A DNA stretch of 64,000 bases from an uncultured virus (IMG/VR IMGVR_UViG_2860837431_000002) (Duplodnaviria > Heunggongvirae > Uroviricota > Caudoviricetes). The stretch covers positions 62,001 to 126,000 of the IMG/VR virus record IMGVR_UViG_2860837431_000002. One strand, given 5' to 3'. Positions 947-60,738 of this stretch are shown here, in pieces; position 1 is the first letter of the stretch; each line of letters starts with the position of its first letter. The position numbers and the translations under genes were made by a program. The notes beneath the pieces are model-generated. The model made no database searches. It was not told where the DNA came from and saw only the letters and a program-made list of their open reading frames with translations.

Positions 947-974
947 TCTGAATAAAAGTACGATTTTATGCAGA
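947..974. repeat. 28-bp 11-6-11 dyad site, copy 1
   Basis: TCTGAATAAAA-GTACGA-TTTTATGCAGA. Confidence 0.85.
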
Positions 975-1025
975 CCTAGAAAACTTGTAATTCCTTCCTA
1001 TGCTTGTAACTTTAGTATACCATTT

Positions 1026-1253
1026 TCATCCTGAGTGATCGATATGGTTATGATCTTTTTGGAAAATCAATAACTCATGCAGCTCGATGTTTAGGTATGT
1101 ACATACCTTATCCAACAGCTCTCTCGGATACCGCTCCATTTCATCTCTGTATAGCTTTCTGACAGTCGGATACTCATGATCAATATCTCTGGATAGCTGC
1201 CTAATACTGATCTTCCTTTCGTCTAATATGGGCTTTAAATTAGATTTAATCAA
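1026..1253 (-). CDS. yopB: Cro/CI-type HTH transcriptional regulator
   Basis: 75 aa HTH ([21 protein letters not shown]); next to yopA. Confidence 0.85.
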
Positions 1254-1506
1254 AATTCCACTCTTTTCATTTGTCTTTTATTGATATCTTATAGTAATCA
1301 ATTGATTCATAAAAAAGACCAAGATAAGACTTGGTCAATAATGCATAAATCTAAGTGTTTTTCGTTCTTATGCGTGAACCAAACCGAAAACCGTTTAAAC
1401 CTTTTTAACTTTTTACAACATAGATACTTAGTCAAAAGCAAATGTTTTTTTTACGGCAACTCCGAGAAATTTTTCTCGCTAACTGTAAATCCTTATAAAG
1501 ACGTTT

Positions 1507-2838
1507 TTATGTTTGATTGTCTCTTGTTTTCCAAGGGACAAGTTCATACACTCCTTCTATTATAGGTACCTTCAAACGGTTTACATAACTTCCTTCATAC
1601 CCCAATATTCCAAGTGTTAGTAATTCAAGATACCAAACACCAAGATAAAGTACATGGAGCTTATCTGTCGGATTGTCAAAATCAAGTTCCCTTGTAGGAT
1701 GGACTATATTATTCCTAAATACAGTAAAAAGGTGTGGTCCATCGTCATAATAATCCTTATTGTCAATAAAGAGTTTTGGTATTGATAAGTCAATTGAAAA
1801 TCTAGATAATATTTCTCTAAATTTCTCTGCTGCATTCATAGACTTATATTTAGATTTACTAATCTTGGATTTTCCATCTACAATAAGATATACCCATGCC
1901 AAAGTTTCCAATGCAACCTGAACAGATACCACCTTGTTTTCCACTATACTTGATGAATGTGCTTGGGAGTACCAACTCAATACTTCCCATAAAACCTTAT
2001 TCCAAAAAGGATCTTCTTGCTTCTCAATCACCTTTGGAAATAAATGTTCTAAGGATAGAGATTTTTGTTTTGGGAACCAAGTAATATTATTAGTCCAGCC
2101 ATCTATTAATGGAGCTTGGTATTTCCTCCATATTACCTCCTGGTTGTGGTATCCTTCCAATGTGGGGATAGCAACATGTCTACCTACTGAAAAGGATAAT
2201 AACCAATAAAGCCCTGAGATGAGTGGTTCTACCTCTTTAGTATTAAATAATTTATCATCCACTCTTTTTAAATATCCCACATGTGTTATTAAGTATCCGC
2301 CCGAATTTTTTAATCTATTAAAGATTTTTTTGTTTGAATAGTCATATCGCTTATCCAAAATTATTTCCCAATCTTTATATTTTAAATTTGTTCTCCCTGA
2401 AAATTTAAACCTTCCATTCACAATTCCTCTACCAAAATCATTTACGAAGTTAACCACCGTGAATTCCATTCTAGTCACTTTAGTTTCAGCTGAGGTTAAA
2501 ACAGAATGCTTTAGTACCCCCGATACTTTTTTCTCTTTACTTCCGTCTGTTATACTTGTAATAAGAACTTCAGATTTCATAAATCCAGGTACATTAATCA
2601 TTATATTATTACTTTTCATTGCCTTTCTAAATTCTAAAGGCTTGCTAAGATTACCTGAAACGGCTCCTTCAAATATTAGTCTAGCTTTTGGTAAAAATGC
2701 AATTTTAACTTCTCCGATGATTTCAAAAAAATCATCAGCAACTTCAATTGTAAAGTGGCCAATATAGATTTTAATCGGTTCATTAATATCGTACTCTAGG
2801 AAGGAGGATTCAAGAGCTATATTTCCCAAATTTATCAC
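1507..2838 (-). CDS. yopA: YopA; ApeA-like protein with C-terminal HEPN RxxxxH motif
   Basis: 443 aa, SPbeta synteny, FRNNIVH near C-terminus. Confidence 0.8.
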   Translation of the reverse strand: MINLGNIALESSFLEYDINEPIKIYIGHFTIEVADDFFEIIGEVKIAFLPKARLIFEGAVSGNLSKPLEFRKAMKSNNIMINVPGFMKSEVLITSITDGSKEKKVSGVLKHSVLTSAETKVTRMEFTVVNFVNDFGRGIVNGRFKFSGRTNLKYKDWEIILDKRYDYSNKKIFNRLKNSGGYLITHVGYLKRVDDKLFNTKEVEPLISGLYWLLSFSVGRHVAIPTLEGYHNQEVIWRKYQAPLIDGWTNNITWFPKQKSLSLEHLFPKVIEKQEDPFWNKVLWEVLSWYSQAHSSSIVENKVVSVQVALETLAWVYLIVDGKSKISKSKYKSMNAAEKFREILSRFSIDLSIPKLFIDNKDYYDDGPHLFTVFRNNIVHPTRELDFDNPTDKLHVLYLGVWYLELLTLGILGYEGSYVNRLKVPIIEGVYELVPWKTRDNQT

Positions 2839-3038
2839 CTAATTATTTTCTCGAATTTTAAAGTCTATTATTTAAGTTCTTCATTACTTTTCTAATTCCT
2901 TCACTAAGGAGGTGATTCCCCTTAGAGTTCCAGACCTGCTGCTTTTAATTCTCTGTCCTTAATTCTATGCGATTATTTATTAAACCCGTCTTTTCCAGAT
3001 TGATCTTGACCACTGTATAGCTTTCTTTAAAATGTGCA

Positions 3039-3066
3039 TTTAAATGAAACTGCTGTTTTATACAGA
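3039..3066. repeat. 28-bp dyad site, copy 2 (a degenerate copy at 3022-3049 overlaps it)
   Basis: TTTAAATGAAA-CTGCTG-TTTTATACAGA overlapping the stop of ORF 3058-3279. Confidence 0.65.
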
Positions 3067-3279
3067 TATCTCTTTAAGCCAACACCCGTTTGAAGTGTAA
3101 AAATTAGCCACCACATTTCCTTTATGACTGCCATTAATAATGCTTCTAATTGCTGACTTGAGTGATCCAGTAAAATACTCAGTTTTATTACACACTGAAC
3201 CTGAACTGTCATACTGTGTGAGCTTTAATTCAATCCTAAATGTATCATTCCATAATGTAAGAGTTTTTTCTACTGTCAC
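3058..3279 (-). CDS. Hypothetical phage protein (yoyI position)
   Basis: GTG start with GGAGG SD, overlapping the upstream stop. Confidence 0.75.
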   Translation of the reverse strand: MTVEKTLTLWNDTFRIELKLTQYDSSGSVCNKTEYFTGSLKSAIRSIINGSHKGNVVANFYTSNGCWLKEISV

Positions 3280-3677
3280 TGCGCACCTCCGTTATTTGAC
3301 ATGTATCTCATATCGATTAGAGCTTCGAAAGTTGTATTGATAATTGCTGTCACACTGTTTGTATTGTATGACCTATACGGCATATCCTCATGTTCATTTA
3401 TCGCAAATTCGTACATGTTGATATCCTTATCGAATGCCAGTTTGAAGTCTTTGAATCTGTCATCAGCCTCTAACGCTTCAAGAATATCTATAACTAAATT
3501 CATATCACTCTGCATATGGTCTATACGACATCTGTAATTTCCGTCAAAATCAAATAGACTTACGGGCGATCTATTTCCTTTGCCTGTGTACGGATGCATT
3601 TTCAATAAATCAGTTATGATCACTTTAATTTTTCCGTCTTTTTTCTCCCATAAATCGATCGTGCCTTCTTTCATCAT
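3276..3677 (-). CDS. Hypothetical phage protein (yonX position)
   Basis: AAGGAGG SD before ATG 3677; the ORF-track start at 3722 runs through a dyad site and is unlikely. Confidence 0.75.
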   Translation of the reverse strand: MMKEGTIDLWEKKDGKIKVIITDLLKMHPYTGKGNRSPVSLFDFDGNYRCRIDHMQSDMNLVIDILEALEADDRFKDFKLAFDKDINMYEFAINEHEDMPYRSYNTNSVTAIINTTFEALIDMRYMSNNGGAQ

Positions 3678-3689
3678 TCCGCCCTCCTT

Positions 3690-3717
3690 TATGTATAAAA
3701 TTGTTGTTTTATTTAGA
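3690..3717. repeat. 28-bp dyad site, copy 3
   Basis: TATGTATAAAA-TTGTTG-TTTTATTTAGA, intergenic. Confidence 0.85.
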
Positions 3718-3722
3718 TTCAC

Positions 3723-4160: not shown

Positions 4161-4181
4161 TTTAAATATCCCCTTTTTTCT

Positions 4182-4260
4182 ATATTATTTGTATTTGTTA
4201 TTTATATTATAACTTGATAATCTATAATGTTCAATAATTAAATACATATTTTTTGTATTT
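4182..4260 (-). promoter_or_regulatory. Two copies of the AAATACAAA(T/A)AATAT operator-like element
   Basis: 4182-4196 is the exact reverse complement of 9944-9958; 4246-4260 has one mismatch. Confidence 0.6.
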
Positions 4261-5693: not shown

Positions 5694-5711
5694 AAATCTT
5701 ATCCTTTCCTT

Positions 5712-6866: not shown

Positions 6867-6910
6867 TCATCTCACCTCAATGATTTAATTATACCATGAG
6901 GCCTATAAGA

Positions 6911-7162
6911 TTAGTGTGACTTGTTTCTTAGTTTAAGGAATACAAAATAGATGATCCACAACAATATGGCAATGATACATGTGACTATGAATATTATATT
7001 GATTAGTGTTTGTGCTTCGCTGCTGAAGTAATCCTTAATGAGTTGAAACATTAAGAATAAGCCAATGAATGTGATATGGGTAAACCATAATGAGAATCGT
7101 TTCATGTTTGCAATGTGCTTGATCATGTTATAATATGGGTAGGAACTAAAGGAGAAGTTCAT
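6911..7162 (-). CDS. yoyJ: Two-TM membrane protein of the yonT-yoyJ/SR6 type I TA locus
   Basis: 83 aa hydrophobic protein immediately downstream of yonT. Confidence 0.8.
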   Translation of the reverse strand: MNFSFSSYPYYNMIKHIANMKRFSLWFTHITFIGLFLMFQLIKDYFSSEAQTLINIIFIVTCIIAILLWIIYFVFLKLRNKSH

Positions 7163-7245
7163 TCCCCTTTAGCTTAGCTCTCATCGGCGTATACGTTGGC
7201 GTTGTCTCTTTGGTCGGAGCCGCTTGCGTATACGCTTTTTCTTTT
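7141..7245 (+). ncRNA. SR6-like antisense antitoxin RNA (ends approximate)
   Basis: Extended -10 TGTTATAAT at 7126-7134 on +; GCGTATACG...TGCGTATACGC-TTTT hairpin; overlaps yonT 3' end and yoyJ 5' end. Confidence 0.6.
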
Positions 7246-7357
7246 TGCTTGTCCCATTCTTTAGGTTTCTTACCTTCTCAACTATTGTTAGACTGTTGAT
7301 TGTAAGAACCGTTAAAGATATGAGAAAAGCAACTATGATACCCACTTTCTCAAGCAC
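7181..7357 (-). CDS. yonT: Type I toxin YonT (58 aa)
   Basis: N-terminal TM helix and highly basic tail; GTG start after AGGAGG. Confidence 0.9.
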   Translation of the reverse strand: MLEKVGIIVAFLISLTVLTINSLTIVEKVRNLKNGTSKKKKRIRKRLRPKRQRQRIRR

Positions 7358-12102: not shown

Positions 12103-13398
12103 TAAATTTATAGTCGCGTCGCATAGCGATATGCGGATGAAAAGTCAGTGAACCTAGAAAACTAGGGTGTGCATTCAGCGAAAAGTAGCGATAGGAAATG
12201 ATCGTTAATGAGTGTGCTAACAGGGGAATTCTAATTAATACATTTTACATTTTGAACAATGATATTTAAAACAAGGGGGTGACAAAGTGAAGTTTATAAA
12301 TGAGGATGAGCATAAATATTTGAGTGGGATATATAAGATTGAGCAGATAAGCACCGGCTTAATATATGTGGGGAAAACTAAGATGAAATTTATTAAGCGT
12401 TACTGGCATCACACTTGGAAGCTGAAAAACAATTCGCACTGTAATCGACATTTGCAGAATAATTGGAATAAATATGGAGAAAACGATTTCCAATTCCATG
12501 TTTTACAAACAGTTGATCCAAACTCAGATATGAACGAATTAGAAACTCACTACATAAATGAACTAGGTGCCTATTTAAATGGCTTTAACATGACCACCGG
12601 CGGAGAGGGCAAGAGTAATTGCAAGATGTCTGACTCCACCAAAAAGATTATTGGGGAAAAGAATAGGATTAATAACATCGGAAGAAAGCTTAGTGATGAG
12701 ACTAAAGCCAAAATGAGTAAGGCAAGAATTGGCAGAAAGCTCTCTCCGCAGCATAAGGAAAAGCTTTTACAATCTAGAATGAATAAAAGGCATTCGCCAG
12801 AATCTAGATTAAAGATGCGTCAGTCTCATTTAGGGTCAAAAAATAAATCCTCAAAAATAAATGAAACGAAAGCACACGAGATAAAAGTTCGATTGATTAA
12901 TGGGGAAAAGATGTCTGAAGTATCAAAATCAATGCGTGTTTCCTACCCCATCGTTAAATCAATATTACAGTGTAAAGTATGGAATCATATTCATGTTACT
13001 GGGTGGGACGACTTTATTCTTAAATACAAAAGCAAGAAGAAAAGCACTCTTACTCCAGAAGAAGTATTTTGTATAAGAGAACTTCTTAAAAAAGGGTTAT
13101 CAGCACCCCATGTTGCAAAAATGTGTAACATAAAACCCAATGTTGTTTATGGAATTAAACAAGGAAGAACCTATAAAAATGTGAAATGAATGTTGAATGT
13201 AGAATGTATTATATGAAAACCCTGTGCCAAGCGTTTACATCATGCTGAGAAGTACTTGTAAATGAAGGTGCAACGACCATCCTTTATGGAGTAATAATAA
13301 GGTGAAATTCCTTATTATGAAGCGCTGACCATCTGTCTAGTACAGATGATGATATGGTCTATTCCCTAATAAATATCGGGAAACCGAGGGTATCAAAG
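12103..13398 (+). mobile_element. Group I self-splicing intron (IA-like, 1296 nt) in yonO
   Basis: Exon ends in U with P1 CGAU/GUCG U-G wobble; terminal G 13398; P3 GTCAGTG 12144/CGCTGAC 13323; P4 CAGGG 12221/CCCTG 13220; P7 GACCA 13275/TGGTC 13355; P8 CATCTGT/ACAGATG; P9 TCGG-GAAA-CCGA; removal restores the in-frame junction NNFTID|FAKT. Confidence 0.92.
12287..13189 (+). CDS. Intron-encoded GIY-YIG homing endonuclease with NUMOD3 repeats and C-terminal HTH
   Basis: GIYKI...YVGKT; repeats GRKLSDETKAKMS, GRKLSPQHKEKL, HSPESRLKM; own SD. Confidence 0.92.
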   Translation: MKFINEDEHKYLSGIYKIEQISTGLIYVGKTKMKFIKRYWHHTWKLKNNSHCNRHLQNNWNKYGENDFQFHVLQTVDPNSDMNELETHYINELGAYLNGFNMTTGGEGKSNCKMSDSTKKIIGEKNRINNIGRKLSDETKAKMSKARIGRKLSPQHKEKLLQSRMNKRHSPESRLKMRQSHLGSKNKSSKINETKAHEIKVRLINGEKMSEVSKSMRVSYPIVKSILQCKVWNHIHVTGWDDFILKYKSKKKSTLTPEEVFCIRELLKKGLSAPHVAKMCNIKPNVVYGIKQGRTYKNVK

Positions 13399-15647: not shown

Positions 15648-16895
15648 TTATTTTAAAAACTTATTTACAAACTCTACTACTTCATCATACTTATGATCCG
15701 TTGGTTGCCTCTCCAGTTCATTATCTGGATGAGAAGATCTCTGCATTAATCTAATATTTATAGTATTTAAAGAAGCTGTCAAATTGAATATTACAAATCC
15801 AGCATTAAACAATTTCCCTATTTTCAAAAACTCTATCTCTTGCTGATTTAGAAGGACTGATAAATTTATCCAATAAAGTTCATCTGTTGAGATACATTTA
15901 TAATCTTTTTCAATAATGGATACCTCAGCGTAGTTCTCTTTTCCTTCACCATGCTTGTTTCTAAATTTAATCCCAACAATATCGCCCTGTTCATTAGTAT
16001 CAAGACTTTTTGATATTATACATAATACTGATGTAGAGATGTGTTCTTTAGATGTGATCCCCTCTTCATGAACTGGGCCAAATTCTTTGTGAATTTTACC
16101 TACAAACGCATCAATTTCAGGTTGAAAATCAGCTGATTTTTGTTGAGCCTTTTCACGTTGACCTTTAAGTAAATTTTCTTCAATTAGAAATAGTGATTTT
16201 CTAACATTGTCAATTTCCTTACAGTGTATCTTGGGCTCAAAACCATATAAAAAGTTTAATGTGTTTTCAATCCGTCCCTTAAAAGTACTAACTTCTTTTG
16301 AGTTGCTTTCTATAAGGTCAACATCTTTTATCCTGATATGCAGTAAATTCCTTCGAAAATCCACATCAATTATTGTCGGATAAGCTGCATATAAATCATC
16401 ATCATCTTGCCTATAAATTTTAACTGGATTTTTGTCAAGTAAGAGCAATCTTATGCAATCAAAATCATATCTTCTATATCCACAAATAACGAAGTCGCTT
16501 TCAGCTTCATTATTTACATTCGACAGTATTTTATTGTCAGATGGGACTCCCCACTTCCTAAGCAACTGATTTAAATCTGTCTCATTGTTGCACATTATAT
16601 TATCTGGTTGTAGTTTATATAAATATGAATTAAACAAGGTGTCTTCTATCAGGAGAAAGAGCAATTCATCTAAATCCATTTCTGTTAAGAAACCTTCCTC
16701 AATTCCTTTAACTAAAGTTTTCGCCACCTTTATAGCTCTATCTTCATCGTCACTTTGAGTTAATACCTGGCTGTAACAGTCGTTAAATTGAGGATATTTT
16801 TTGATGAAAGCAAGCTTTTGCATTACGAGACCTTTTCTAAGGTAAGGATAAAATAATTTTAAGTCTGAAAATATTTCGTTACTACTTTTCTTCAT
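15648..16895 (-). CDS. Hypothetical 415-aa accessory (moron) protein
   Basis: Long ORF antisense to the late operon; AAGGGG SD; terminator hairpin ~15602-15626. Confidence 0.85.
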   Translation of the reverse strand: MKKSSNEIFSDLKLFYPYLRKGLVMQKLAFIKKYPQFNDCYSQVLTQSDDEDRAIKVAKTLVKGIEEGFLTEMDLDELLFLLIEDTLFNSYLYKLQPDNIMCNNETDLNQLLRKWGVPSDNKILSNVNNEAESDFVICGYRRYDFDCIRLLLLDKNPVKIYRQDDDDLYAAYPTIIDVDFRRNLLHIRIKDVDLIESNSKEVSTFKGRIENTLNFLYGFEPKIHCKEIDNVRKSLFLIEENLLKGQREKAQQKSADFQPEIDAFVGKIHKEFGPVHEEGITSKEHISTSVLCIISKSLDTNEQGDIVGIKFRNKHGEGKENYAEVSIIEKDYKCISTDELYWINLSVLLNQQEIEFLKIGKLFNAGFVIFNLTASLNTINIRLMQRSSHPDNELERQPTDHKYDEVVEFVNKFLK

Positions 16896-18870: not shown

Positions 18871-19326
18871 TTGGATTTAGCAATGCATGAAGTGTATAAC
18901 CTTCACTTGTATGATAGAAAAACTGAGGAATCTTTAGTTGATTTAACAACACTTCAAGATGTTGAAATTTTTTATAGTGATGAACATAAAACATATTTGG
19001 TTTTTGCAAAGAATGCTCTGCTAAATTTTGATGCACTTAAATTTTTAGGTGATTATAAAGCTCCAACCTCCTTTGAATCAAAGTTGGGAAAGAAACAATA
19101 TATTTCTGTTTTAACTGAAACACCTAAGCATGAATTCAAACTGTTGGCTGAAACTGTCGGTTCTCGCCCTGAGTCATCAGAGGCCCATAGAGTTACCTTA
19201 GAATTTAATAATGTAGAAATTATTTCTAGAGCTGAATTAAAAGGTGTTAACGGAGAAGTATCGGGTTTAGACTTGATTTTTAAAGTGAACCCAGTTGATA
19301 AAGAATTTTTTAAAATTCACTATTGA
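18871..19326 (+). CDS. Hypothetical protein
   Basis: AAGGAGG SD before TTG 18871. Confidence 0.75.
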   Translation: MDLAMHEVYNLHLYDRKTEESLVDLTTLQDVEIFYSDEHKTYLVFAKNALLNFDALKFLGDYKAPTSFESKLGKKQYISVLTETPKHEFKLLAETVGSRPESSEAHRVTLEFNNVEIISRAELKGVNGEVSGLDLIFKVNPVDKEFFKIHY

Positions 19327-19348
19327 TAAAACTTTAATTTTATTCAGA
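19321..19348. repeat. 28-bp dyad site, copy 4
   Basis: TATTGATAAAA-CTTTAA-TTTTATTCAGA. Confidence 0.85.
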
Positions 19349-26569: not shown

Positions 26570-26607
26570 TACATAACAAATAAATTTCAATAAAAGGAGT
26601 ATTTTAA

Positions 26608-27624
26608 ATGAAATTAGATACTGTGAAAATCAAAGGCTTGTTTAGCCGTGTATTAAATAACAAAATGGACGGTACAGATCAAGCTGATATCCAAACTTAC
26701 ATTAAGAAAGTGTTTGGTGACGGCGGTACTACACCTGATCCTTCCATGCTCCATCAATTTAATAACCTTGTCGTTGAACAAGCTGATGAAATTGCGAAAC
26801 CAAAAGTAACTCAACTCCTCTCCCTTTTGGCCAATGTCCAACAAGAAAAACGAGGCAATATTAAAGAAATTAAAATTCCAAAAAAGAATAAGGCAAAAGT
26901 CATTTGGTCTGCTACTGGTTCTGGCGTTGATTTAGTTCGTGTTGAAGGGCAAGAATCAGTTCCAGCTGTTCCGAAAACTATGTCCACAGGTTTTTATTAT
27001 GAACCCCTAGATCTGGTAACAGATTCAATTGTTTACTTCAATAAATTGGTGAATGATATTGCAGATGCTAAAGTCCGCTTGTACCTCGATAAAATTCATC
27101 AATTAACTGCAAGCGCAATTACAGCTGGTAAAATCCCTGCAAAAAATGTTCAAACAGGCTCAAACCTTACTCTTCAACAATACAACAAAGTAGCTTCCGT
27201 GCTTCAACGTTATGGTGGAAAACCAATCTTCGTCGCTGACACTCTTCTCATTGACTACTTCGCATTCCAACAAGGAACAGACTCTACGTTTAAGAACTTC
27301 TTAACAGAAGAAGTTAAAGGAGAACTCCTCACTGCCCTAAATCCAACTACAATCGGCAGAACAACTGCTGTTAACCTTACTAACCCATTTACAGATGATA
27401 CAAATAGTAAAGTCGAACTTCCTGTCAACAAAGGTTATATGTTTGCAGGTGGAGTTTCACAGAAACCATTTTCTGTTGTTGAGTATGGCGGACTGCGTCA
27501 ATTGACAGAACAAGATATCGAAGATGAAAGAATCAAAATGAAAATTGTTCAAGATGCTTCTGTTAACCTTCTTTTTGGAGAAGCAATCGGAATTATTGAA
27601 GAACAAGCTGCAGTATCTATCTAA
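26608..27624 (+). CDS. yonB: Probable major capsid protein
   Basis: 338 aa; position and synteny. Confidence 0.8.
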   Translation: MKLDTVKIKGLFSRVLNNKMDGTDQADIQTYIKKVFGDGGTTPDPSMLHQFNNLVVEQADEIAKPKVTQLLSLLANVQQEKRGNIKEIKIPKKNKAKVIWSATGSGVDLVRVEGQESVPAVPKTMSTGFYYEPLDLVTDSIVYFNKLVNDIADAKVRLYLDKIHQLTASAITAGKIPAKNVQTGSNLTLQQYNKVASVLQRYGGKPIFVADTLLIDYFAFQQGTDSTFKNFLTEEVKGELLTALNPTTIGRTTAVNLTNPFTDDTNSKVELPVNKGYMFAGGVSQKPFSVVEYGGLRQLTEQDIEDERIKMKIVQDASVNLLFGEAIGIIEEQAAVSI

Positions 27625-32349: not shown

Positions 32350-32377
32350 TCTAGATAAAAGACAGTTTTTATTCAAA
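32350..32377. repeat. 28-bp dyad site, copy 5
   Basis: TCTAGATAAAA-GACAGT-TTTTATTCAAA. Confidence 0.85.
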
Positions 32378-35069: not shown

Positions 35070-35472
35070 AGATATCAAAGCTATGGTTGAACAAGCTGCA
35101 ATTCAATCAATTCATAAGTCTTCCTCTAATGTGAAACAAATTATGGTAAAAACAGGACAAGAGCATATTGTTGAAGATGTTTACGGTGCATATGATCCCC
35201 TACTTTATGAACGCACAGGACAAGTTAAAGATGCCTTTATAACCACCAACGAAAGCAACGGGGTGTCATTGGACAATATTAGAGAAGATGATGGAAAAGA
35301 CATTGCTACAGTTATTGAAACCGGGCAGGGGTATACATACCCTGATTCATATGGATATGGATACGGTAACCCTCGTCCTTTTATGAAGAATACCTCTGAG
35401 ACCTTAAGAGATGGACGATTAACCGCAGCGCTAAAAAAAGATTTAAAAGCAGATGGTATTAAAACAGACTAA
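35053..35472 (+). CDS. yomN: Tail completion-like protein
   Basis: YERTGQ...PRPFM motifs. Confidence 0.7.
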   Translation: MAKTIKDIKAMVEQAAIQSIHKSSSNVKQIMVKTGQEHIVEDVYGAYDPLLYERTGQVKDAFITTNESNGVSLDNIREDDGKDIATVIETGQGYTYPDSYGYGYGNPRPFMKNTSETLRDGRLTAALKKDLKADGIKTD

Positions 35473-35485
35473 TGGTGGTGAATTA

Positions 35486-36487
35486 ATGACCAAACCAATT
35501 GAAAAGAATATGCTCAGATCTCGAGCAATAAAACTCCCCGAGGTCACGGAATCAATGTGGGAGCAAGTAGATGAAGAGCACAGAAACTTGGTTCAAGAGT
35601 TTTTAGATGCTCATTCATTTAGAGATAAAACACGAAAGCAGTATTACTCCTCCCTTCGCCAATTCTTTTGGTGGGTACATACCTCTCTTAACGGGAAAAA
35701 ACTTTATAAGATCTCAAAGCGTGATTTCATTAGGTATCAAAGTTTCTTAAAGAATCGTGGGATGTCTTCAAGTGGGATTGCTTTAAAAAAAGCCGGTGTA
35801 TCATCGTTAAATAATTATATCGAAAATGTTGTTGCAGAAGATGATCATAATTATGAGAAATTCAGAAATTTCACCCGCGGGCTTCCAGCTATTCCTAAAA
35901 CCACTACCTATGAAAAAGTTAAAGTTACATATGATGATTATAAACTGATGATGGACGCCCTAAAAGAGGACGAAAATTATTTGGGGATGGCATGGCTTGC
36001 TACTGCCTTTAATGTTGGCGGGCGAAGAGCAGAACTCATACAGTTAAAAACAGAAATATTAGATTACCCTGTTCCAGAGGGTCAGTCATACGTGATGAGT
36101 CATAAGGTATTTGGAAAAGGTAAAGGTGAAGGAAAACCTCTTGAGTACATGATTAACACAGAAGCACTGGAGTATCTTCGCTTATGGCATGAAAAACGTG
36201 GCTATGATCATGAATACCTCTTCACTACTCAGTATGGCGGAGAGCCTAAACAGATGTCAGAGTCTTGGGCTGATTATTTTTGCTCTGATGTGTTATCAGA
36301 CATCCTTGGTCGACGTATAAACCCCCACCTCTTTAAAGCTTCGTGCATCACTTATCTCCTAGAAGTTAAGAAAATCAAAATTGAATTGATAAGCAAATAT
36401 GTAGCTCATCATGAAGATGTCTCAACAACAATCAAACATTATGATTTACGGGATTTTGAAGAAGAAAAAAATCAAATATTTGTTTAG
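35486..36487 (+). CDS. yomM: Tyrosine recombinase family protein
   Basis: SAM-like N-terminus; GGRRAEL, GKG, PHLFKAS, AHHEDVSTT, HY catalytic motifs. Confidence 0.88.
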   Translation: MTKPIEKNMLRSRAIKLPEVTESMWEQVDEEHRNLVQEFLDAHSFRDKTRKQYYSSLRQFFWWVHTSLNGKKLYKISKRDFIRYQSFLKNRGMSSSGIALKKAGVSSLNNYIENVVAEDDHNYEKFRNFTRGLPAIPKTTTYEKVKVTYDDYKLMMDALKEDENYLGMAWLATAFNVGGRRAELIQLKTEILDYPVPEGQSYVMSHKVFGKGKGEGKPLEYMINTEALEYLRLWHEKRGYDHEYLFTTQYGGEPKQMSESWADYFCSDVLSDILGRRINPHLFKASCITYLLEVKKIKIELISKYVAHHEDVSTTIKHYDLRDFEEEKNQIFV

Positions 36488-36880: not shown

Positions 36881-36908
36881 TCAGCATAAAATCCCTCTTT
36901 TATGCAGA
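36881..36908. repeat. 28-bp dyad site, copy 6
   Basis: TCAGCATAAAA-TCCCTC-TTTTATGCAGA. Confidence 0.85.
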
Positions 36909-52951: not shown

Positions 52952-52979
52952 TCTAGATAAAATATAGATTTTATTCAAA
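52952..52979. repeat. 28-bp dyad site, copy 7
   Basis: TCTAGATAAAA-TATAGA-TTTTATTCAAA; arms identical to copy 5. Confidence 0.88.
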
Positions 52980-53088: not shown

Positions 53089-54123
53089 ATGGCAAGAAAG
53101 ATATCAGATTATCATTTAAAAAAACGTGAAGAAACTCAAAAGAAATTTATTGATTTATTAGCTCAGAATAACTACATTCACATTTCTGGAGACATGGTAA
53201 ATTCAAAAACAAAGGTGAAAGTCAGATGTCCACATAATCACACATGGCAAGTAAATTACGAACACTTTAAAAAAGGTACTCGTTGTCCAGAATGTAGGAT
53301 AATTGAAGGCTCCCTTAAAAAAAGGCTTAACTTAAGTACTGTGAAAAGTAGATATGCCCTTAAAGGCTATGAGATTTTAAGCACCTATAAAAACTGTCAT
53401 TCTAAACTAAAAGCTAAGTGCCCTGAAGGACATATATGGGAGCACCTTCCCAGCAACTTCTTTAAAGGTGAAGAGTGTTTTCAATGTAAAGGTGCTAAAA
53501 AATACACTGTTGAATGTGCACAAGCAGCTTTTTCTGATCGTGGGTTTATCCCTTTATTCGATACATACCATCACAATAAAGAAAATCTCCCTTTTCTATG
53601 CAAGGAACATATAGACTTAGGAGTTCAATATGCTCCACTTCATAACATGGTAAGAGGTTTAGCAAACTGCAGAAAGTGTTATTTACTTCTTTTCACAGGC
53701 GAAAATAGCTCTAGATGGAAAGGCGGTATTTCTCCTTTAAATAAAACTTTAAGAGAAGCTGTTTATGAAGTTTGGACTAAACCCTCATTAGAGAAATATT
53801 CATTTAAATGTGCAATAACAAACTCTACAAAAGACCTTCATGTGCACCACTATAAAAAGAATTTTAGCGAGATTGTTAAAGAAGCACTGAGCAATTTAAG
53901 TTTTGAACCGCAGTCTAAAATTGGCGATTTTACTGTCAATGAGCTTGAGCAAATTAAAAATGAATGTGTAAGACTTCATTTGAATTATGGACTCGGAATT
54001 CCTCTAACTAAAAAAATCCACAATCTTTTCCATGAAATTTATGGAACATCCAACAATAATGAGATTCAATTCAACGAGTTTCGAAATCGCTATGAAAATG
54101 GTGAATTCGAGGCTCTTTTTTAA
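53089..54123 (+). CDS. Free-standing HNH homing-type endonuclease with Zn-ribbon repeats (yomD position)
   Basis: Two CPxxHxW...CxxC repeats, WKGG, CAIT...LHVHH...HNLFH. Confidence 0.82.
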   Translation: MARKISDYHLKKREETQKKFIDLLAQNNYIHISGDMVNSKTKVKVRCPHNHTWQVNYEHFKKGTRCPECRIIEGSLKKRLNLSTVKSRYALKGYEILSTYKNCHSKLKAKCPEGHIWEHLPSNFFKGEECFQCKGAKKYTVECAQAAFSDRGFIPLFDTYHHNKENLPFLCKEHIDLGVQYAPLHNMVRGLANCRKCYLLLFTGENSSRWKGGISPLNKTLREAVYEVWTKPSLEKYSFKCAITNSTKDLHVHHYKKNFSEIVKEALSNLSFEPQSKIGDFTVNELEQIKNECVRLHLNYGLGIPLTKKIHNLFHEIYGTSNNNEIQFNEFRNRYENGEFEALF

Positions 54124-55249: not shown

Positions 55250-55364
55250 TTATATTCAATTATCTCGGAGGATATTTATTGATCTAATGTATCATTGACT
55301 ATCCTCTTAATTTTAGGAGGTGATGTAATGTCACCTTTCTATATTTATTAAAGGTTGGTGACAA

Positions 55365-55757
55365 ATGGATAATTTTGAGCAAAGCACCATTTCAAGATTA
55401 AGTGCACTAGAAGAAAAAGCAAAACACACTAATAACAAGATTGACTCTCTTGAAGAAAGAACAAATGTTATCGGTCGTATAGCTACACTTGTTGAGCAAC
55501 AAGTCGAAATTAACAAAGACTCTCAAGCACAATCAAGAGAACAGTTCAGTACTCTTAACGAAATGAGTAACAGTTTAAAAAATCTAAGCAAATCATATGA
55601 AAAACTGGACAATCGAGTTGAAATATTGGAACGCTCTGATTCTACTCGTAAAATTGATCCCTCACAGTTTACTAAAGACCTTGTATTCAAGGTGCTACCA
55701 AGTGTGATTGCAACTATTGTCGGTGCATGGTTGCTCATACATTTTGGCCTTAAATAA
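55365..55757 (+). CDS. XhlA-like holin accessory protein
   Basis: Coiled coil plus C-terminal TM helix; between endolysin and holin. Confidence 0.7.
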   Translation: MDNFEQSTISRLSALEEKAKHTNNKIDSLEERTNVIGRIATLVEQQVEINKDSQAQSREQFSTLNEMSNSLKNLSKSYEKLDNRVEILERSDSTRKIDPSQFTKDLVFKVLPSVIATIVGAWLLIHFGLK

Positions 55758-55777
55758 AATCAACAGGAGACGATTAA

Positions 55778-56029
55778 ATGACTAAAATCAACTGGAAAGT
55801 AAGACTGAAAAAGAAGACATTTCTTGTTGCAATTTTCTCTGCAACGCTGTTATTTGTACAAGCAATTGCCTCTGCTTTTGGGTATGACTTAACTGTATTT
55901 GGTGACAATTTGACAGAGAAATTTAATGCACTACTAACATTTTTAACTGCAATGGGTATCATTGTTGACCCAACAACTCAAGGTATTTCTGATAGTGAAC
56001 AAGCAATGGATTATGATTCACCGAGATAA
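55778..56029 (+). CDS. Phage holin (phi LC3 family)
   Basis: INWKVRLK...GIIVDPTT.G.SDS motif. Confidence 0.9.
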   Translation: MTKINWKVRLKKKTFLVAIFSATLLFVQAIASAFGYDLTVFGDNLTEKFNALLTFLTAMGIIVDPTTQGISDSEQAMDYDSPR

Positions 56030-56153
56030 AACCCCTACCCTTCTCTTAATCGAGGAGGGTATTTTTTTCGTTATTTAAGATAACATTAATCTTCCTTATT
56101 CATTTAAATATGATAAAATATTACATATTTAGATATTTAATATAGGAGGGCTT

Positions 56154-57293
56154 GTGTTGGAGCAGATGATCTCTTCTTCTAAAGTTGGAGTGAAAATAAA
56201 TGAGTGGTATAAATACATAAGATTATTTAGTGTCCCAGATTCGGAAATATTGAAAGCTGAGGTCGAGGAAGAAATAAGGCATATGAAAGAAGATCAAGAT
56301 TTATTGCTGTACTATTCTCTCATGTGTTTTCGCCATCAGCTGATGCTGGACTACCTTGAACCAAAAACATTGAACGAAGAACGACCTAAAATTTCAGACT
56401 TATTAGAAAAGATCGAAAGTAGTCAAACTGATTTGAAAGGGATTCTTGAATATTATTTTAACTTTTTCCGGGGAATGTATGAATTTGAACAATACGAATA
56501 TCTTAATGCCATAAGCTTCTATAAGCAAGCCGAGAGAAAATTATCACTTGTTGCAGATGAAATTGAAAGAGCTGAATTCCACTATAAAGTTGCAGAAATT
56601 TATTATCATATGAAGCAAACACATATGTCGATGCACCACATTGTTCAAGCAATCGATAGTTATAAAGCACATGAAAACTACACTGTAAGAGTTATTCAAT
56701 GCTCATTTGTTATCGGACTGAACTATTTGGATATGGACTACCCTGAAAAAGCGATCCCTCATTTTAAAGATGCTCTAGATAAAGCAAGAGAAATCGATAT
56801 GTCACGATTAATCGGATCATCTCTTTACAATCTCGGCTTATGTTCCTTTGCTGAGGAAGCTTATGAAAAGGCATCTGAGTACTTCAAGGAGGGCATTAGA
56901 GTATATCAGGATAATGGGTATGAACATTCAAATCGCATATTAGATATCTTACTTATGTTGACAAAAACCACTTTTAAAATGAGAAATCACTCCGAGGGAA
57001 TTTCTTGGTGTGCACACGGTCTGTCTTTGTCCAAAAATTTAAACGATGAGATTATGGCAAAAATGTTTGAATTCATTCATGCCTTATATGTAGATAATGA
57101 CAATGAAAAATTAAATTCAATTCTAAATTATTTAGAATTAAAGTCAATGCTTTCAGACGTGGAGGATTTAGCATCAGATGCAGCGAAGTATTACAATGAA
57201 AAAGAAGACCATAAAGTGGCTGTTGCTTATTATGAAAAAGTGCTTTATGCCCGTAAACAAATTCAGAGAGGGGATTGTCTTTATGAAACTTAA
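56154..57293 (+). CDS. Rap-family TPR phosphatase/regulator
   Basis: SSKVGVKINEWY...DQDLLLYYSLMCFRHQLMLDYL Rap signature. Confidence 0.95.
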   Translation: MLEQMISSSKVGVKINEWYKYIRLFSVPDSEILKAEVEEEIRHMKEDQDLLLYYSLMCFRHQLMLDYLEPKTLNEERPKISDLLEKIESSQTDLKGILEYYFNFFRGMYEFEQYEYLNAISFYKQAERKLSLVADEIERAEFHYKVAEIYYHMKQTHMSMHHIVQAIDSYKAHENYTVRVIQCSFVIGLNYLDMDYPEKAIPHFKDALDKAREIDMSRLIGSSLYNLGLCSFAEEAYEKASEYFKEGIRVYQDNGYEHSNRILDILLMLTKTTFKMRNHSEGISWCAHGLSLSKNLNDEIMAKMFEFIHALYVDNDNEKLNSILNYLELKSMLSDVEDLASDAAKYYNEKEDHKVAVAYYEKVLYARKQIQRGDCLYET

Positions 57294-57459
57294 GCATGCA
57301 TCTGTCTTTATTTTAGCCATTGTTTTAATTGGATTTGTAAGCACTTATTTAACTAACACTCAAAAAGATGTCCAAGAAGCACGCAGAGGACATACAGCCA
57401 GTATTGGTTTTACTGATGGTCATTCGTATGAAATTGCAAGCAGAGGACATACTTCTTAA
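57283..57459 (+). CDS. Phr propeptide (58 aa) with two RGHT(A/S) peptide copies
   Basis: Overlaps the rap stop; signal peptide; EARRGHTA and IASRGHTS. Confidence 0.9.
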   Translation: MKLKHASVFILAIVLIGFVSTYLTNTQKDVQEARRGHTASIGFTDGHSYEIASRGHTS

Positions 57460-57500
57460 TATGTTTTTCTTATCCCCCCTCCAAATTGAGGGGGTTATTT

Positions 57501-58751
57501 TTATGATTTATGTCCCCCAGTAAGTCCAGCTCTGTAAAGTGCAGTTCCTGCAGATGTATAAGAAACTGCTCTAAGAATCGCTTTCGATCCGTATTTACTT
57601 CTAATCCCATCCATTACAAACCCAAGTTTCCTTCTCTTTTCATTATCCACTTCAAATAAACTCAACTGTTGATTAACATCATCCTCAATATTTGATAACG
57701 TAACTGAGATACTTCTTACTGTTTTACCCGAGTAAAACTTATCAAACAGCATCAAGCAACATCTATATATGTCCATCGTGATATTTGTGGGAAGATCTAT
57801 TGTTTTGGCTCGGTGAAATCCACCACCAAGATCATCCTTACTGTATCCAATACCCAGGCTGATTGTTCGACCAGCTTTGTTGTGTGTACGTGCCCTTCTT
57901 GCGACTTCCTCACAAATTTCCAAAAGAACAGCCTTAATCTCTTCTCTCCTTATATAATCCCTCAGTAAAATCTGACTCTTACCAAAACTAATCTGTCCTT
58001 GCATCAAAGGAGCTCCTATTTCTGATAAATCGATTCCATGAGCATGATAATACAACTGGTTTCCCATTATTCCGAACTTCTTTTCAAGCAGCTCTAAAGG
58101 AAATTTAGCTAACTGACCTACAGTTGATATTCCAATCCGATTCAGATTTCTTTCCATCCTCCCTCCTATCCCCCACATTTTAGACAACGGGTGAACCTTC
58201 CAGAGTTTATTTGGCACATCTTCATATCTCCAACGTGCAATGCCACTTTTCGTTTTCTTACTCTCCAGGTCAAGTGCAAGCTTACTGAGCAACATATTAT
58301 CTCCAATGCCTACTGTACACATCAGACCAAATTCTCTCCACATGCTGCTTTGGATTGCCTTGGCCATTTCTTCAGGATCTTCTTTTCCTGCATCTAAAAA
58401 AGATTCATCAATTGAATACGTATGGACACATTTCTCAGGAACAAATCTGTAAAACAGCTTTGTAATTTCAGTTGAAACTCTGATGAAAAGCTTCATTTGT
58501 GGATTTACAATGTGTATCCTTGGATCTTCAGGTATCTCAAAAAGTCTCGATCCTGTTTTGATTCCAAAATCTTTTTTAAGTGCAGGAGATGCAGCTAACA
58601 CTACACTTCCCTGTCTCTCCGTATTCCCTACAACAGCAAGATAGCATGTTAAAGGATTAAGTCCCATTGTTACAGCCGATACAGAAGCATAAAAGGATTT
58701 CATATCGACACAAAGTATATTCTTACGTGGAAATTGTGAGTAATCAATCAT
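57501..58751 (-). CDS. uvrX: Y-family lesion-bypass DNA polymerase
   Basis: VDMKSFYASV, YSIDESF motifs. Confidence 0.95.
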   Translation of the reverse strand: MIDYSQFPRKNILCVDMKSFYASVSAVTMGLNPLTCYLAVVGNTERQGSVVLAASPALKKDFGIKTGSRLFEIPEDPRIHIVNPQMKLFIRVSTEITKLFYRFVPEKCVHTYSIDESFLDAGKEDPEEMAKAIQSSMWREFGLMCTVGIGDNMLLSKLALDLESKKTKSGIARWRYEDVPNKLWKVHPLSKMWGIGGRMERNLNRIGISTVGQLAKFPLELLEKKFGIMGNQLYYHAHGIDLSEIGAPLMQGQISFGKSQILLRDYIRREEIKAVLLEICEEVARRARTHNKAGRTISLGIGYSKDDLGGGFHRAKTIDLPTNITMDIYRCCLMLFDKFYSGKTVRSISVTLSNIEDDVNQQLSLFEVDNEKRRKLGFVMDGIRSKYGSKAILRAVSYTSAGTALYRAGLTGGHKS

Positions 58752-59076
58752 TGTATGTAACTCCTATGATGTCATTCATGTTGATATAAACTGTATTGTC
58801 GTTCTGGTCTTTTACGTGAAGCTTTTGTTGTTCAAAATTAATGTAATGGACTCTTCCGTTGACATTTTCAACGAATCCATTGTTAAAGAGTTTGAATTTC
58901 AACTCTTTATTAAATTCAAGTGCCTCAGAGACGAGAAGATCCATCTCTTCAATTTGTTGGTCATCTAAGGATGGTTTTTCAATTTTTGATACATCAATCA
59001 AATCTTGTTTAAGTTGTGTTAAATGTTCTGGAAGCATCATTGATGTCCATTTGATTGTTCCTCGATCCCTAAGCAT
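58744..59076 (-). CDS. yolD: YolD-like protein
   Basis: MLRDRGTIKWTSMMLPEH signature. Confidence 0.93.
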   Translation of the reverse strand: MLRDRGTIKWTSMMLPEHLTQLKQDLIDVSKIEKPSLDDQQIEEMDLLVSEALEFNKELKFKLFNNGFVENVNGRVHYINFEQQKLHVKDQNDNTVYINMNDIIGVTYND

Positions 59077-59110
59077 ATCGACTCACTCCTTTATTGATCT
59101 AATATTAACA

Positions 59111-59152
59111 GAACAAACGTTCTTCATTCAAGATGAACAAGAACAAAAGTTC
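59111..59152. promoter_or_regulatory. Two LexA (SOS) boxes upstream of yolD-uvrX
   Basis: GAAC-AAAC-GTTC 59111-59122 and GAAC-AAAA-GTTC 59141-59152. Confidence 0.85.
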
Positions 59153-59243
59153 GTTGTAAATGTTGGTAATTAATCGATACTATGACATTTTATACGTGAT
59201 ACACTTATTAGCAAATGGATAAGTTAATTGAGGAGATGAAATA

Positions 59244-60242
59244 ATGTCATTGACCGGCAAGCTAAGAAGTAAAAAACAAAAAGACAAGGAATTTAAAAAT
59301 ATCCTTGTTTCTATAGAGCCATTAAAAGACGACTACTATACCCTGAGTGGTAAGCTTCCTTTTTCAAAAGAATATTCAATATATGCCCCCTATAAACTTG
59401 AAAATCAATACAATTCAAGTTTAATTGGTGTTGCTTTTGATTACTTAGCAAGGTTTAGAATTGGACAGTTTACAAATAAAGAGGAAGCAAAAGATCGTTT
59501 AAAAGCTTATAAGGGACTGAGGAAATTATGTCAAAAAACTAAGGATTATTCACTAGAGGGTGCCTTCTATATACCCTTAATAAACGACATATTGGACTTT
59601 ATCAGAAGTGAATCGAAAATATCTCCAGATCTATGTCAAAAAGCAGTAAAGTTAGCTAAACTAGAACAGTTATACAGATCTCGAACCATTGGAGAGATAA
59701 ATGCAGATTCTTATACTTGCATAGATTCTTCTGATGAAATAGTCAATGACCTAATGAGCCTTTTGGATGTTTTCGAAGATAAGTTCATAAACAGTGGCAT
59801 ACTATCAAAAAACAGCGAAGTCGATTTTAATCCCTACTTTGGCGTCAGCTCTCCATTAGTAGGCGGTGCAGATGCAGATATTTGGATAGATGGGACGTTG
59901 TATGATTTTAAAACAACAATAAAGTACTCTTTGGATAAAAATGATAACCTTCAGTTAATTGGCTATTTTATATTAAATGAACTCGCTCAAGAAGTTCACG
60001 CTGCAACAGGAGTTCCTCCCCTATTAGACATAAATAGAGTGGGTTTTTATAAAGCAAGGTATGGAGAGATTGAATTTTACGATACAGAAAAATTGATTAC
60101 AAAAGAAATGCGCGACCAAACATTAGTTGAATTGGCTAAATACTTTAGTGAAAATCCAGGTAAGTTATATTTAGTTCATAACCCTTTCTTTGTAGAGGAT
60201 GCAAAAGAGGTTCTAAAATCAATTGGTGAATGGGGAATTTAG
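59244..60242 (+). CDS. PD-(D/E)XK nuclease-like accessory protein
   Basis: GADADIWIDGTLYDFKTT...LQLIGY resembles RecB-family motifs II/III and QxxxY. Confidence 0.7.
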   Translation: MSLTGKLRSKKQKDKEFKNILVSIEPLKDDYYTLSGKLPFSKEYSIYAPYKLENQYNSSLIGVAFDYLARFRIGQFTNKEEAKDRLKAYKGLRKLCQKTKDYSLEGAFYIPLINDILDFIRSESKISPDLCQKAVKLAKLEQLYRSRTIGEINADSYTCIDSSDEIVNDLMSLLDVFEDKFINSGILSKNSEVDFNPYFGVSSPLVGGADADIWIDGTLYDFKTTIKYSLDKNDNLQLIGYFILNELAQEVHAATGVPPLLDINRVGFYKARYGEIEFYDTEKLITKEMRDQTLVELAKYFSENPGKLYLVHNPFFVEDAKEVLKSIGEWGI

Positions 60243-60402
60243 AGATACATTCTATCTAATCTTAAAACATATGATTCACATTGGTAATTTATTGTGAATT
60301 TTCAACGACAAGGGTATTTATGTATAGTATAATATTTCCTGTACATCAAGTTTGCTCACTCAAGGGAGTCTTGCTCATCCCCTAATGAAAGGGGGTGATG
60401 CT

Positions 60403-60486
60403 ATGTCAACATTTCAGGCATTAATGCTGATGCTTGCGTTCGGGTCGTTTATAATTGCCCTGTTGACGTATATAAATAAAAAATAG
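60403..60486 (+). CDS. BsrE/BsrH-type type I toxin (27 aa)
   Basis: MSTFQALMLMLAFGSFIIALLTYINKK; SD sequestered by a CATCCCC/GGGGGTGATG hairpin; terminator ~60573-60608. Confidence 0.88.
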   Translation: MSTFQALMLMLAFGSFIIALLTYINKK

Positions 60487-60663
60487 ACCTCCCTTGAGCC
60501 TCAGAACCTTAAAGGGATAGGTCTACGTAGATTGAACATCGAGCAAGCCCTTTGATGGGCAGCTTTTTGTACAGATCCGGGGTGTTGGTAGCACCCTGGT
60601 CTTTTTTATTTTATGCAATCCAATTAAACAAATGCATTTTATACGTAAAAACGTATAATCTTC
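60480..60663 (-). ncRNA. Convergent antisense antitoxin RNA (SR4/SR5-like; ends approximate)
   Basis: Minus-strand TTGCAA-18 bp-TATAAT (60699-60670); hairpin TAGACCT...AGGTCTA plus U-run at the toxin 3' end. Confidence 0.7.
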
Positions 60664-60710
60664 ATCCTAATTATAACCATATAAAAATGGTATTTGCAAT
60701 ACAATTGCTT

Positions 60711-60738
60711 TATGGATAAAACCATTATTTTATTTAGA
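60711..60738. repeat. 28-bp dyad site, copy 8
   Basis: TATGGATAAAA-CCATTA-TTTTATTTAGA. Confidence 0.85.

Follow-up and report, generated by a model that had tools for sequence, protein, structure and literature searches.

The window analysed here comprises 64,000 nucleotides of the uncultured virus record IMG/VR IMGVR_UViG_2860837431_000002 and corresponds to positions 62001-126000 of a 131,607-bp SPβ-like phage genome, which we refer to as G000. A 10-kb probe taken from the window matched Bacillus phage SPBc2 (SPβ) with 97.9% identity over 80%, the SPBc2 record being inverted relative to the window. Gene names were taken from the SPBc2 annotation, and the gene calls for G000 are our own crude prediction (174 genes, 82% coding). 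The subject of this analysis is a family of dispersed 28-bp dyads, each consisting of two 11-bp arms and a 6-bp spacer. Eight copies with defined arms had been described in a first-pass annotation of the window (at 947, 3039, 3690, 19321, 32350, 36881, 52952 and 60711); all eight were found at these positions with the arms as described. The following copies are present in the window (ORF, open reading frame; RBS, ribosome-binding site; SPR, a second SPβ-like phage used for comparison):

947..974: symmetric dyad, both arms fitting the consensus; homology to SPBc2 and SPR starts inside it, at 952
3039..3066: dyad with one core mismatch (ATGAAA) that shares 9 bp with the end of a minus-strand ORF
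3690..3717: dyad occupying the whole space from a stop codon (3723) to the RBS and start (~3677) of the next minus-strand gene
19321..19348: dyad overlapping the stop codon of the upstream plus-strand ORF, next start 14 nt on; SPBc2 ortholog 57142-57169
26585..26612: weak copy with TTTTAA in one arm and an RBS-like GGAG in the spacer, which may be a chance match
32350..32377: symmetric dyad between yomT-like and yomS-like genes, next start 14 nt on; SPBc2 ortholog 44411-44438
36881..36908: the most symmetric dyad, 394 bp downstream of yomM; SPBc2 ortholog 39880-39907
52952..52979: symmetric dyad 32 bp past the stop codon of a yomE-like gene; SPBc2 ortholog 24122-24149
60711..60738: dyad about 110 bp past the BsrG RNA; SPBc2 homology stops inside it, at 60734

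Sequence, geometry and placement of the dyads

The pattern ATRAAA-N6-TTTTATNYARA gave 11 strand matches at the eight loci and none in 100 dinucleotide shuffles (mean 0, maximum 0), so that the observation made in the first-pass annotation is real. With the bare core and up to one mismatch nine matches were obtained in the window, namely the eight sites and a copy at 26590, against 2.26 expected, and one of 100 shuffles reached nine. A few of the one-mismatch copies may be due to chance; the exact copies are not. The eight sites represent only a part of the family, which is much larger than first described: the complete phage genome contains 40 copies with at most one core mismatch, 22 of them exact, and 30 of the 40 are situated in the early-gene half beyond the window.

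In a scan of G000 for inverted repeats of all hexamers at spacings of 0-14, ATAAAA-N6-TTTTAT ranked first with 22 copies against 0.32 expected, and the same pair of hexamers occurred at most once at each spacing other than N6. This dyad also ranks first among the hexamer dyads of SPBc2, SPR, Staphylococcus SPbeta-like 2, E3, phi6255 and Kirov. The proposed 11-6-11 geometry (a 6-N6-6 core) was thereby found to be strict with respect to the spacer, and the outer arm positions are conserved within the SPβ group. There the extended form is roughly TCTnnATAAAA-N6-TTTTATnnAGA, the outer TCT/AGA arms being restricted to this group. The 31 copies that could be oriented by transcription read T(C/T)T(a)(a/g)ATAAAA-N6-TTTTA(T/a)n(C)A(G/A)A with an RBS within a few bases. 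In the hexamers, the outer AT/TA bases vary as little as the A and T tracts. It had also been proposed that the right arm is the better conserved one throughout; this is the case for five of the eight window sites, but the sites at 947, 32350 and 52952 match on both strands, and the asymmetry seen genome-wide is independent of transcription. SPBc2 contains 13 exact copies, at 2628, 12495, 24127, 39885, 44416, 57147, 95562, 99497, 111028, 113663, 116414, 128076 and 132746, and two dyads overlap features annotated as stem_loop in the SPBc2 record (2622-2651 and 116406-116431).

All spacers are distinct within each of seven genomes. This confirms the observation that had been taken as a safeguard against deletions; for that purpose, however, it is uninformative because only about 0.9 duplicates are expected by chance. 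The end positions of the spacers are biased but anti-correlated. From this bias a polarity can be assigned to the sites: 25 are co-oriented with transcription and 31 have the opposite orientation. A switch of polarity along the genome, an idea derived from the orientations in SPBc2, was not borne out by these counts.

The claim that the dyads are intergenic or overlap a stop codon holds for the whole genome, where 36 of the 40 copies are either located between genes or extend no more than 9 bp into the end of one. Within the window no copy is found in the interior of a coding sequence, as had been noted; the four copies inside predicted coding sequences all lie outside the window. The dyad centre is likewise located outside coding sequences in E3 (25 of 30), Kirov (22 of 25) and phi6255 (28 of 36). 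Many of the gaps are short: 21 G000 copies are found in gaps of 20-150 bp, 14 of these in gaps of 20-80 bp. The typical order is stop codon, dyad and RBS, the upstream stop often being a TAA within ATAAAA or the T-R-R at arm positions 3-5, and the next start codon follows at a median distance of 12-26 nt in G000, E3, Kirov and the Clostridioides difficile phage phiCD211.

Occurrence in phages and a candidate binding protein

The exact core was counted in further phages, with the reversed, non-complemented motif as control:

Goe11: 16 exact-core dyads, control 1
phi3Ts: 14, control 1
SPR: 12, control 0
Staphylococcus SPbeta-like 2: 10, control 1
Geobacillus phage E3: 17, control 0
Mammaliicoccus phage phi6255: 26, control 0
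Bacillus cereus phage Kirov: 21, control 0
2S-4: 28, control 0
vB_BcoS-136: 14, control 0
FADO: 30, control 0
PhiSepi-HH3: 10, control 0
phiCD211: 1, control 1
Lysinibacillus phage LC76P1: 1, control 0
Lactococcus phage 949: 2, control 0
Sundance: 0, control 0
KKP_3916: 2, control 0
TR-TP1: 1, control 1
VRE9_2: 0, control 0

The dyad family is conserved across phages of Bacillus, Geobacillus, Staphylococcus and Mammaliicoccus in this panel, which is small and phylogenetically structured. In phiCD211 a related dyad, TTAAAA-N6-TTTTAA, ranks first (12 copies, 0.93 expected); its copies are mostly intergenic, with a median distance of 15 nt to the next start.

A comparison with the host chromosome had been proposed in the first-pass annotation. 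In one lysogen (G002) a region of about 103 kb surrounding the prophage terminase contains 11 of 12 copies, the reversed control giving four matches. In a second lysogen (G001) 39 of the 50 copies among the matches listed are situated in a prophage of about 140 kb, with 65 copies overall and a whole-genome control of 14. The dyad is phage-specific and not a host signal. With 11 of 12 copies in the prophage of one lysogen genome, the 18-bp core is a clean prophage marker.

All predicted G000 proteins were profiled against four dyad-positive and three other genomes. Few of them track the presence of the dyad. For each of three paralogs with tyrosine-recombinase fold, YopR/MrpR, YopP and YomM, a separate ortholog exists in E3, in phi6255, in the Staphylococcus phage and in Kirov, and their co-occurrence with the dyad was then compared over 16 lineages:

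Full-length YomM-like protein (at least 31% identity): 9 of 9 dyad-positive lineages, 1 of 7 dyad-negative lineages (Lactococcus phage 949)
MrpR-like protein: 9 of 9 dyad-positive lineages (PhiSepi-HH3 only below the Pfam cut-off, 24.4 bits), 2 of 7 dyad-negative lineages (Sundance, KKP_3916)
YopP-like protein: 9 of 9 dyad-positive lineages, 3 of 7 dyad-negative lineages

The best phylogenetic correlate of the dyads is thus yomM (35453..36487, plus strand), a gene of the late operon that encodes an Xer-like protein with tyrosine-recombinase fold. The first-pass annotation had pointed to YomM as a possible acting protein; it is retained here as a candidate for binding, the link to the dyads being a correlation and the family profile being of Xer type. 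On its own the window YomM matched only a SAM-like N-domain with 26.4 bits (Pfam cut-off 27). A profile of six YomM orthologs, however, gave matches to the XerA-like chain 4a8e (1.4e-16) and to XerD (2.6e-6), and on PF00589 the orthologs of Kirov and Lactococcus phage 949 scored 81.4 and 76.2 bits, respectively. By these matches YomM belongs to the Phage_integrase/Xer-like fold family. The residues R191/R192 (Arg-I), K222/K228 (Lys), H292 (His-II), H320 (His-III) and Y330 (Tyr), to which roles were given by alignment with 4a8e and by the motifs known for the family, are invariant in six of six orthologs. The second catalytic arginine is replaced by lysine in four of the six (SPβ/window, E3, Staphylococcus and Mammaliicoccus) and retained in Kirov and Lactococcus phage 949. 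Hits to YomM were found in 195 phage records. No relevant paper on YomM was found in the literature.

The other candidates fared less well. MrpR-like proteins were a perfect correlate in the first panel, but they are also encoded by Sundance, which is dyad-free, and by KKP_3916 with its two copies. They are disfavoured also because the ten prominent peaks described for MrpR by ChAP-seq (chromatin affinity purification and sequencing) are all located at promoter regions with the repeated element SPBRE (PMC10516654). The DndB/ParB-like protein YopQ was rejected: with its Pfam model only E3 was positive among five records, and the protein is absent from the dyad-rich phage Kirov. YopP, YopQ and YopR are reported to be conserved genes that are transcribed in the lysogen (bioRxiv 10.1101/2021.11.22.469490), and an integrase domain in YopP and a ParB-like domain in YopQ have been described (PMC8612738).

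Some features of the yomM region were observed in addition. The YomM-like frames of FADO (102527-103534) and 2S-4 (127569-128576) contain one in-frame TGA within a 499-aa open frame. A dyad is found 1.05-1.13 kb upstream of the yomM start in Kirov (33767), FADO (101376), 2S-4 (129705), vB_BcoS-136 (72274) and Staphylococcus SPbeta-like 2 (90847), and downstream of yomM at 394 bp in the window and at 224 bp in E3. Such proximity may reflect conserved synteny and not function.

Based on phage specificity, symmetry, co-occurrence and the lack of covariation, strand bias and, at most sites, stable folding, we tentatively propose, with a probability of roughly 0.45, that the dyads are double-stranded DNA sites bound by a phage-encoded protein and act as punctuation of gene boundaries. 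A dimer of this protein would bind the symmetric dyads regardless of their orientation. As judged from the phylogenetic correlation, YomM would be the first choice for the binder, and its paralogs YopP and the MrpR-like protein would come second. The everyday role would be binding rather than strand exchange, with a regulatory or architectural effect at the gene boundaries. On this reading the dyads, about 20-40 per genome, would be the only conserved islands amid accessory genes with fast turnover, and as the sole such islands they would have become preferred end-points of mosaic segments. A similar idea, a recombinase-fold repressor or genome-organising protein, had been mentioned in the first-pass annotation as an alternative to module swapping. 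It fits the data at least as well, and MrpR as described in PMC10516654 provides a precedent. SPβ is a long-studied model temperate phage. If the dyads bind YomM or a paralog, a function would be assigned to a conserved orphan recombinase-fold protein of many large Firmicute phages, and a second genome-wide layer of control or organisation would exist beside MrpR and SPBRE.

Several observations weigh against this proposal. The 16 lineages are not independent, since FADO is closely related to 2S-4 and one Staphylococcus phage to the other, and the dyad-positive phages may simply form one clade. Lactococcus phage 949 encodes a YomM-like protein with 33% identity, yet contains only two dyads, and five smaller phages with YomM-like genes of 24-29% identity showed no excess of a 5-6-5 core. 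Conversely, in phiCD211 only generic integrases and no ortholog of YomM, YopP or MrpR were detected despite its related dyad. Phages share an identical dyad core even where their YomM proteins have only 31-35% identity, and this is much conservation for a single binder. Single core mismatches are found in the transcription-downstream arm in 12 of 15 cases, which could signal a strand-specific role; we attribute this bias to the stop codon, which places an additional constraint on the upstream arm. Finally, eight 18-mers of core plus spacer are identical between phages in non-homologous contexts, against 2.3 expected from a letter shuffle. A model of binding to the arms alone offers no explanation for these recurring 18-mers, so the spacer may be partly read by the binder; the excess may also reflect positional preferences which the letter shuffle ignores. 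Shared spacers between distant phages are not a sign of orthology, as the flanks are unrelated. The unrelated phage FADO contains a 28-mer nearly identical to the dyad at 3690. That the module between 3039 and 3690 came from FADO was ruled out, the match comprising only 51 bp.

Mosaic junctions and alternative explanations

We considered several alternatives to binding as the role of the dyads. The first is active site-specific recombination, in which the Xer-like YomM would act on dyads of co-infecting genomes and exchange their DNA where the spacers match, distinct spacers blocking deletion within a genome. The strict 11-6-11 geometry, the distinct spacers and the invariant residues of YomM, including the intact second arginine in Kirov and Lactococcus phage 949, are consistent with this explanation, and so is part of the evidence from mosaic junctions. 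G000 was compared with SPBc2 and SPR by blastn, by which homology boundaries are fuzzy by a few bases. Boundaries of coverage lie within 20 bp of a dyad centre in 12 of 82 (SPBc2) and 10 of 72 cases (SPR). Compared with random intergenic positions, the predicted accumulation of breakpoints at dyads was confirmed: 11 against 2.9 expected for SPBc2 (0 of 5000 draws) and 9 against 2.4 for SPR (P 6e-4). In the window the homology to SPBc2 also stops 27 bp short of the dyad at 3039 and 41 bp beyond the dyad at 36881. Counted per gap against SPBc2, junctions were found in 19 of 35 gaps with a dyad and in 29 of 138 other gaps (odds ratio 4.5, P 2e-4).

The junctions are sharp. At these positions the partner genome keeps the spacer and both core hexamers, and homology breaks at the outer edge of the 18-bp core. 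Among 43 orthologous dyad pairs, 27 show one-sided homology with less than 50% identity in one flank, and the spacer is identical in 37. Across the pairs the identity is 0.89 in the flank, then 0.92, 0.99, 0.91 in the spacer and 0.90, and drops to 0.48 and 0.28 beyond. This enrichment provides a concrete and testable handle on phage mosaicism that is precise to the gene boundary.

Nevertheless, we regard strand exchange at the dyads as unlikely. The swapping of modules between homologous sites, as suggested in the first-pass annotation, was not found: none of 38 (SPBc2) and none of 32 (SPR) non-homologous segments is bounded by two dyads. Only one end is formed by a dyad in 11 and 10 variable segments, respectively, and modules in the style of pdif are not supported by this one-ended pattern. 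Moreover, 29 of the 48 junction gaps against SPBc2 contain no dyad. With gaps matched for length the odds ratio for SPBc2 is 2.6-3.6 (P 0.02-0.05); for SPR the per-gap enrichment is weak or absent, with odds ratios of 1.3-2.2, mostly not significant, and of 1.3-1.7, not significant, after length matching. The lysine in place of the second arginine in the YomM of SPβ, E3, Staphylococcus and Mammaliicoccus argues in the same direction, and distinct spacers are expected by chance anyway. Selection for intact reading frames in a compact genome would likewise give sharp junctions at gene ends. In the laboratory hybrid Hyb1phi3Ts-SPbeta the two crossovers lie inside stretches of 18.2 kb and 3.7 kb in which the parents do not differ, and for this reason neither can be assigned to a dyad; only 4 bp separate the final SPβ-specific base from the dyad adjacent to yomM.

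The extended version of this explanation, in which YomM and 20-40 heterospecific dif-like sites with an own spacer address for each gene boundary form an enzyme-driven engine of mosaicism, appears quite unlikely to us. If it were true, co-infecting phages would exchange DNA exactly at gene boundaries without scrambling their own genomes, and the engine would be common to large siphoviruses of Bacillus, Geobacillus and Staphylococcus.

The second alternative is that the element acts at the level of RNA, the transcribed dyad upstream of the RBS being a processing, stability or translation signal for a phage RNA-binding protein or nuclease. The regular order of stop codon, dyad and RBS with a start 12-26 nt on, the accumulation of core mismatches in the transcription-downstream arm (12 of 15) and the phage specificity, which requires a phage factor, are in line with such a signal. 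When folded as RNA, however, only two of the eight window sites were better than shuffled sequences, namely 947 (-6.4 kcal/mol, z score -3.67) and 36881, the sole copy with a strong predicted hairpin (-9.2 kcal/mol, z score -5.5). Folding of the other six is marginal (-1.1 to -4.4 kcal/mol, z scores -0.1 to -1.0). Covariation of the arms is absent: in 39 sites of the SPβ group the outer-arm pairs are complementary no more often than in column shuffles (P 0.28-0.82), and over five sets (SPβ group, E3, phi6255, Kirov and the Staphylococcus phage) one of 25 tests gave P <0.05. An Rfam scan of the window found only the type I toxin-antitoxin loci BsrG RNA (60342-60599, plus strand, 220.7 bits) and SR6 antitoxin RNA (7143-7246, plus strand, 128.1 bits) and no family at any dyad. 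Furthermore, the polarity of the sites is unrelated to transcription (25 against 31), and nine of the 40 G000 copies cannot be oriented, including copies between divergent or convergent genes. The layout itself is largely a consequence of 28 bp having to fit into gaps of 45-80 bp. We therefore consider a role in RNA improbable.

As a third alternative the dyads could act through DNA shape, as an in-phase pair of an A tract and a T tract, 10 bp apart from centre to centre, that is bound by host HBsu or phage YonN or extruded as a cruciform. The core has indeed an A4-N6-T4 arrangement, and its identity in phages from four genera of hosts would be compatible with a strongly conserved partner. Hosts are not enriched in the motif, though: beyond the prophage region G002 has one copy (control 4), and in G001 11 of the 50 copies among the matches listed lie outside the prophage, the whole-genome control being 14. 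Phage LC76P1, which also infects a host of the Bacillales, has one copy only. The flanking AT/TA is as invariant as the tracts, and no YonN homolog is among the proteins common to at least three of the four profiled dyad-positive phages. This makes an effect of shape or a host protein highly improbable.

Intrinsic terminators or chance AT-rich palindromes can practically be dismissed despite the overlap of two dyads with the stem_loop features of SPBc2: a G+C stem is absent and none of the nine window dyads gave a terminator-like call, one RNA-library contig (19255-34684) crosses three dyads (a weak argument, as a contig need not equal one transcript), and none of 100 shuffles contained any match.

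In two studies RNA contigs have an end or a start at 19254-19264, some 60 bp ahead of the dyad at 19321. Contigs cannot prove an RNA end or its strand and give no evidence on processing or termination. In one RNA run the word depth falls there about tenfold, from 350 to 34.

Known repeated elements and neighbouring features

The published repeated SPβ element SPBRE, which has a 15-bp motif, was found by ChAP-seq to be the site of MrpR (YopR), with ten prominent peaks; according to the same report MrpR has a tyrosine-recombinase fold, has lost the recombinase function and binds the element at ten sites (Kohm et al. 2023, PMC10516654). De novo motif derivation from these ten peak regions gave approximately GACAAAtACAAAwAATATGTATA, promoter included. 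Copies of this MrpR operator with its built-in promoter are located in the window as follows:

~4241, minus strand: SPBRE copy at a yonX-like gene
~7410, minus strand: SPBRE copy at a yonT-like gene
~9951, plus strand: SPBRE copy at a yonP-like gene

Like the dyad, SPBRE is a repeated intergenic element of the same phage, and its binder has a recombinase fold. The two are not the same element: sequence and positions differ, the dyads are not at the MrpR peaks, and there are ten SPBRE sites compared with about 40 dyads. By sequence the dyad family is a second, distinct repeat of SPβ-like phages. In a loose test SPBRE was not found as a multi-copy motif beyond the SPβ group, where the dyad is multi-copy. 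With up to three mismatches, a threshold that is too loose, the SPBRE-like counts were no better than the reversed control in eight of ten genomes; they exceeded it only slightly in the other two, SPBc2 and SPR, where real copies are present.

The dif and pdif sites of Xer recombinases are 28 bp long with 11-6-11 geometry, and dif modules are known from Acinetobacter plasmids. The dyads resemble them in length and geometry, in being dispersed in many copies among accessory genes, in one arm often being better conserved and in the Xer-like character of the candidate protein YomM. They differ in that none of the 70 variable segments has a dyad on both sides, the arm polarity is inconsistent and the partner would be a phage protein instead of the host XerCD.

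By analogy, the stoperators of mycobacteriophage L5 and other cluster A phages would be the best functional counterpart for a role in binding only. These are about 24-30 repressor sites which are situated in short intergenic gaps and block elongation. Like the dyads, they are scattered over the genome of a temperate phage, with tens of sites placed in the small spaces between genes. A stoperator is an asymmetric 13-mer whose orientation follows transcription, whereas the dyads are symmetric and have no orientation preference (25 against 31).

Short conserved intergenic elements also edge shuffled modules in other phages, namely the promoter/stem-loop (PeSL) cassettes of T4-type phages and the boundary sequences of lambdoid phages. 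In contrast to these elements the dyads have no stable stem-loop, their conserved core comprises only 6+6 bp, and none of the nine window dyads gave a promoter-like match of at least 10/12, in a scan that was powerless here as the counts were below those of shuffles. The attC sites of integrons, imperfect inverted repeats after the cassette ORF which are targets of a tyrosine recombinase, act as folded single strands with conserved pairing. They share with the dyads the imperfect inverted repeat directly past an ORF; the dyads show no covariation or stable fold, are much shorter and lack an attI/intI arrangement.

No description of the dyad element was found in the SPβ literature, although an earlier mention in Lazarevic 1999 or in the supplement of PMC10516654 is possible. 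Passages of an SPβ review and of a comparative Spbetavirus preprint make no mention of it.

Several further differences to SPBc2 and gene features were observed in the window. The gene following the dyad at 52952 (53089-54123, plus strand) has matches to a CapR-homology domain and a treble-clef zinc-finger domain. Relative to SPBc2 the yonO RNA-polymerase gene is interrupted by an insert of about 1.3 kb (12104-13398), which contains an ORF (12287-13189, plus strand) for a GIY-YIG/NUMOD3 homing-endonuclease-like protein; the insert probably represents an intron or else a free-standing homing element. The gap between yonN and yonK, the region of the published YonO late transcription start in SPβ, contains a 415-aa ORF (15648-16895, minus strand) without Pfam match that is absent from SPBc2. 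At 55309-57507 the sublancin operon region of SPβ is replaced by other DNA, in which an ORF (56154-57293, plus strand) encodes a Rap-phosphatase-like protein (RapH_N plus TPR).

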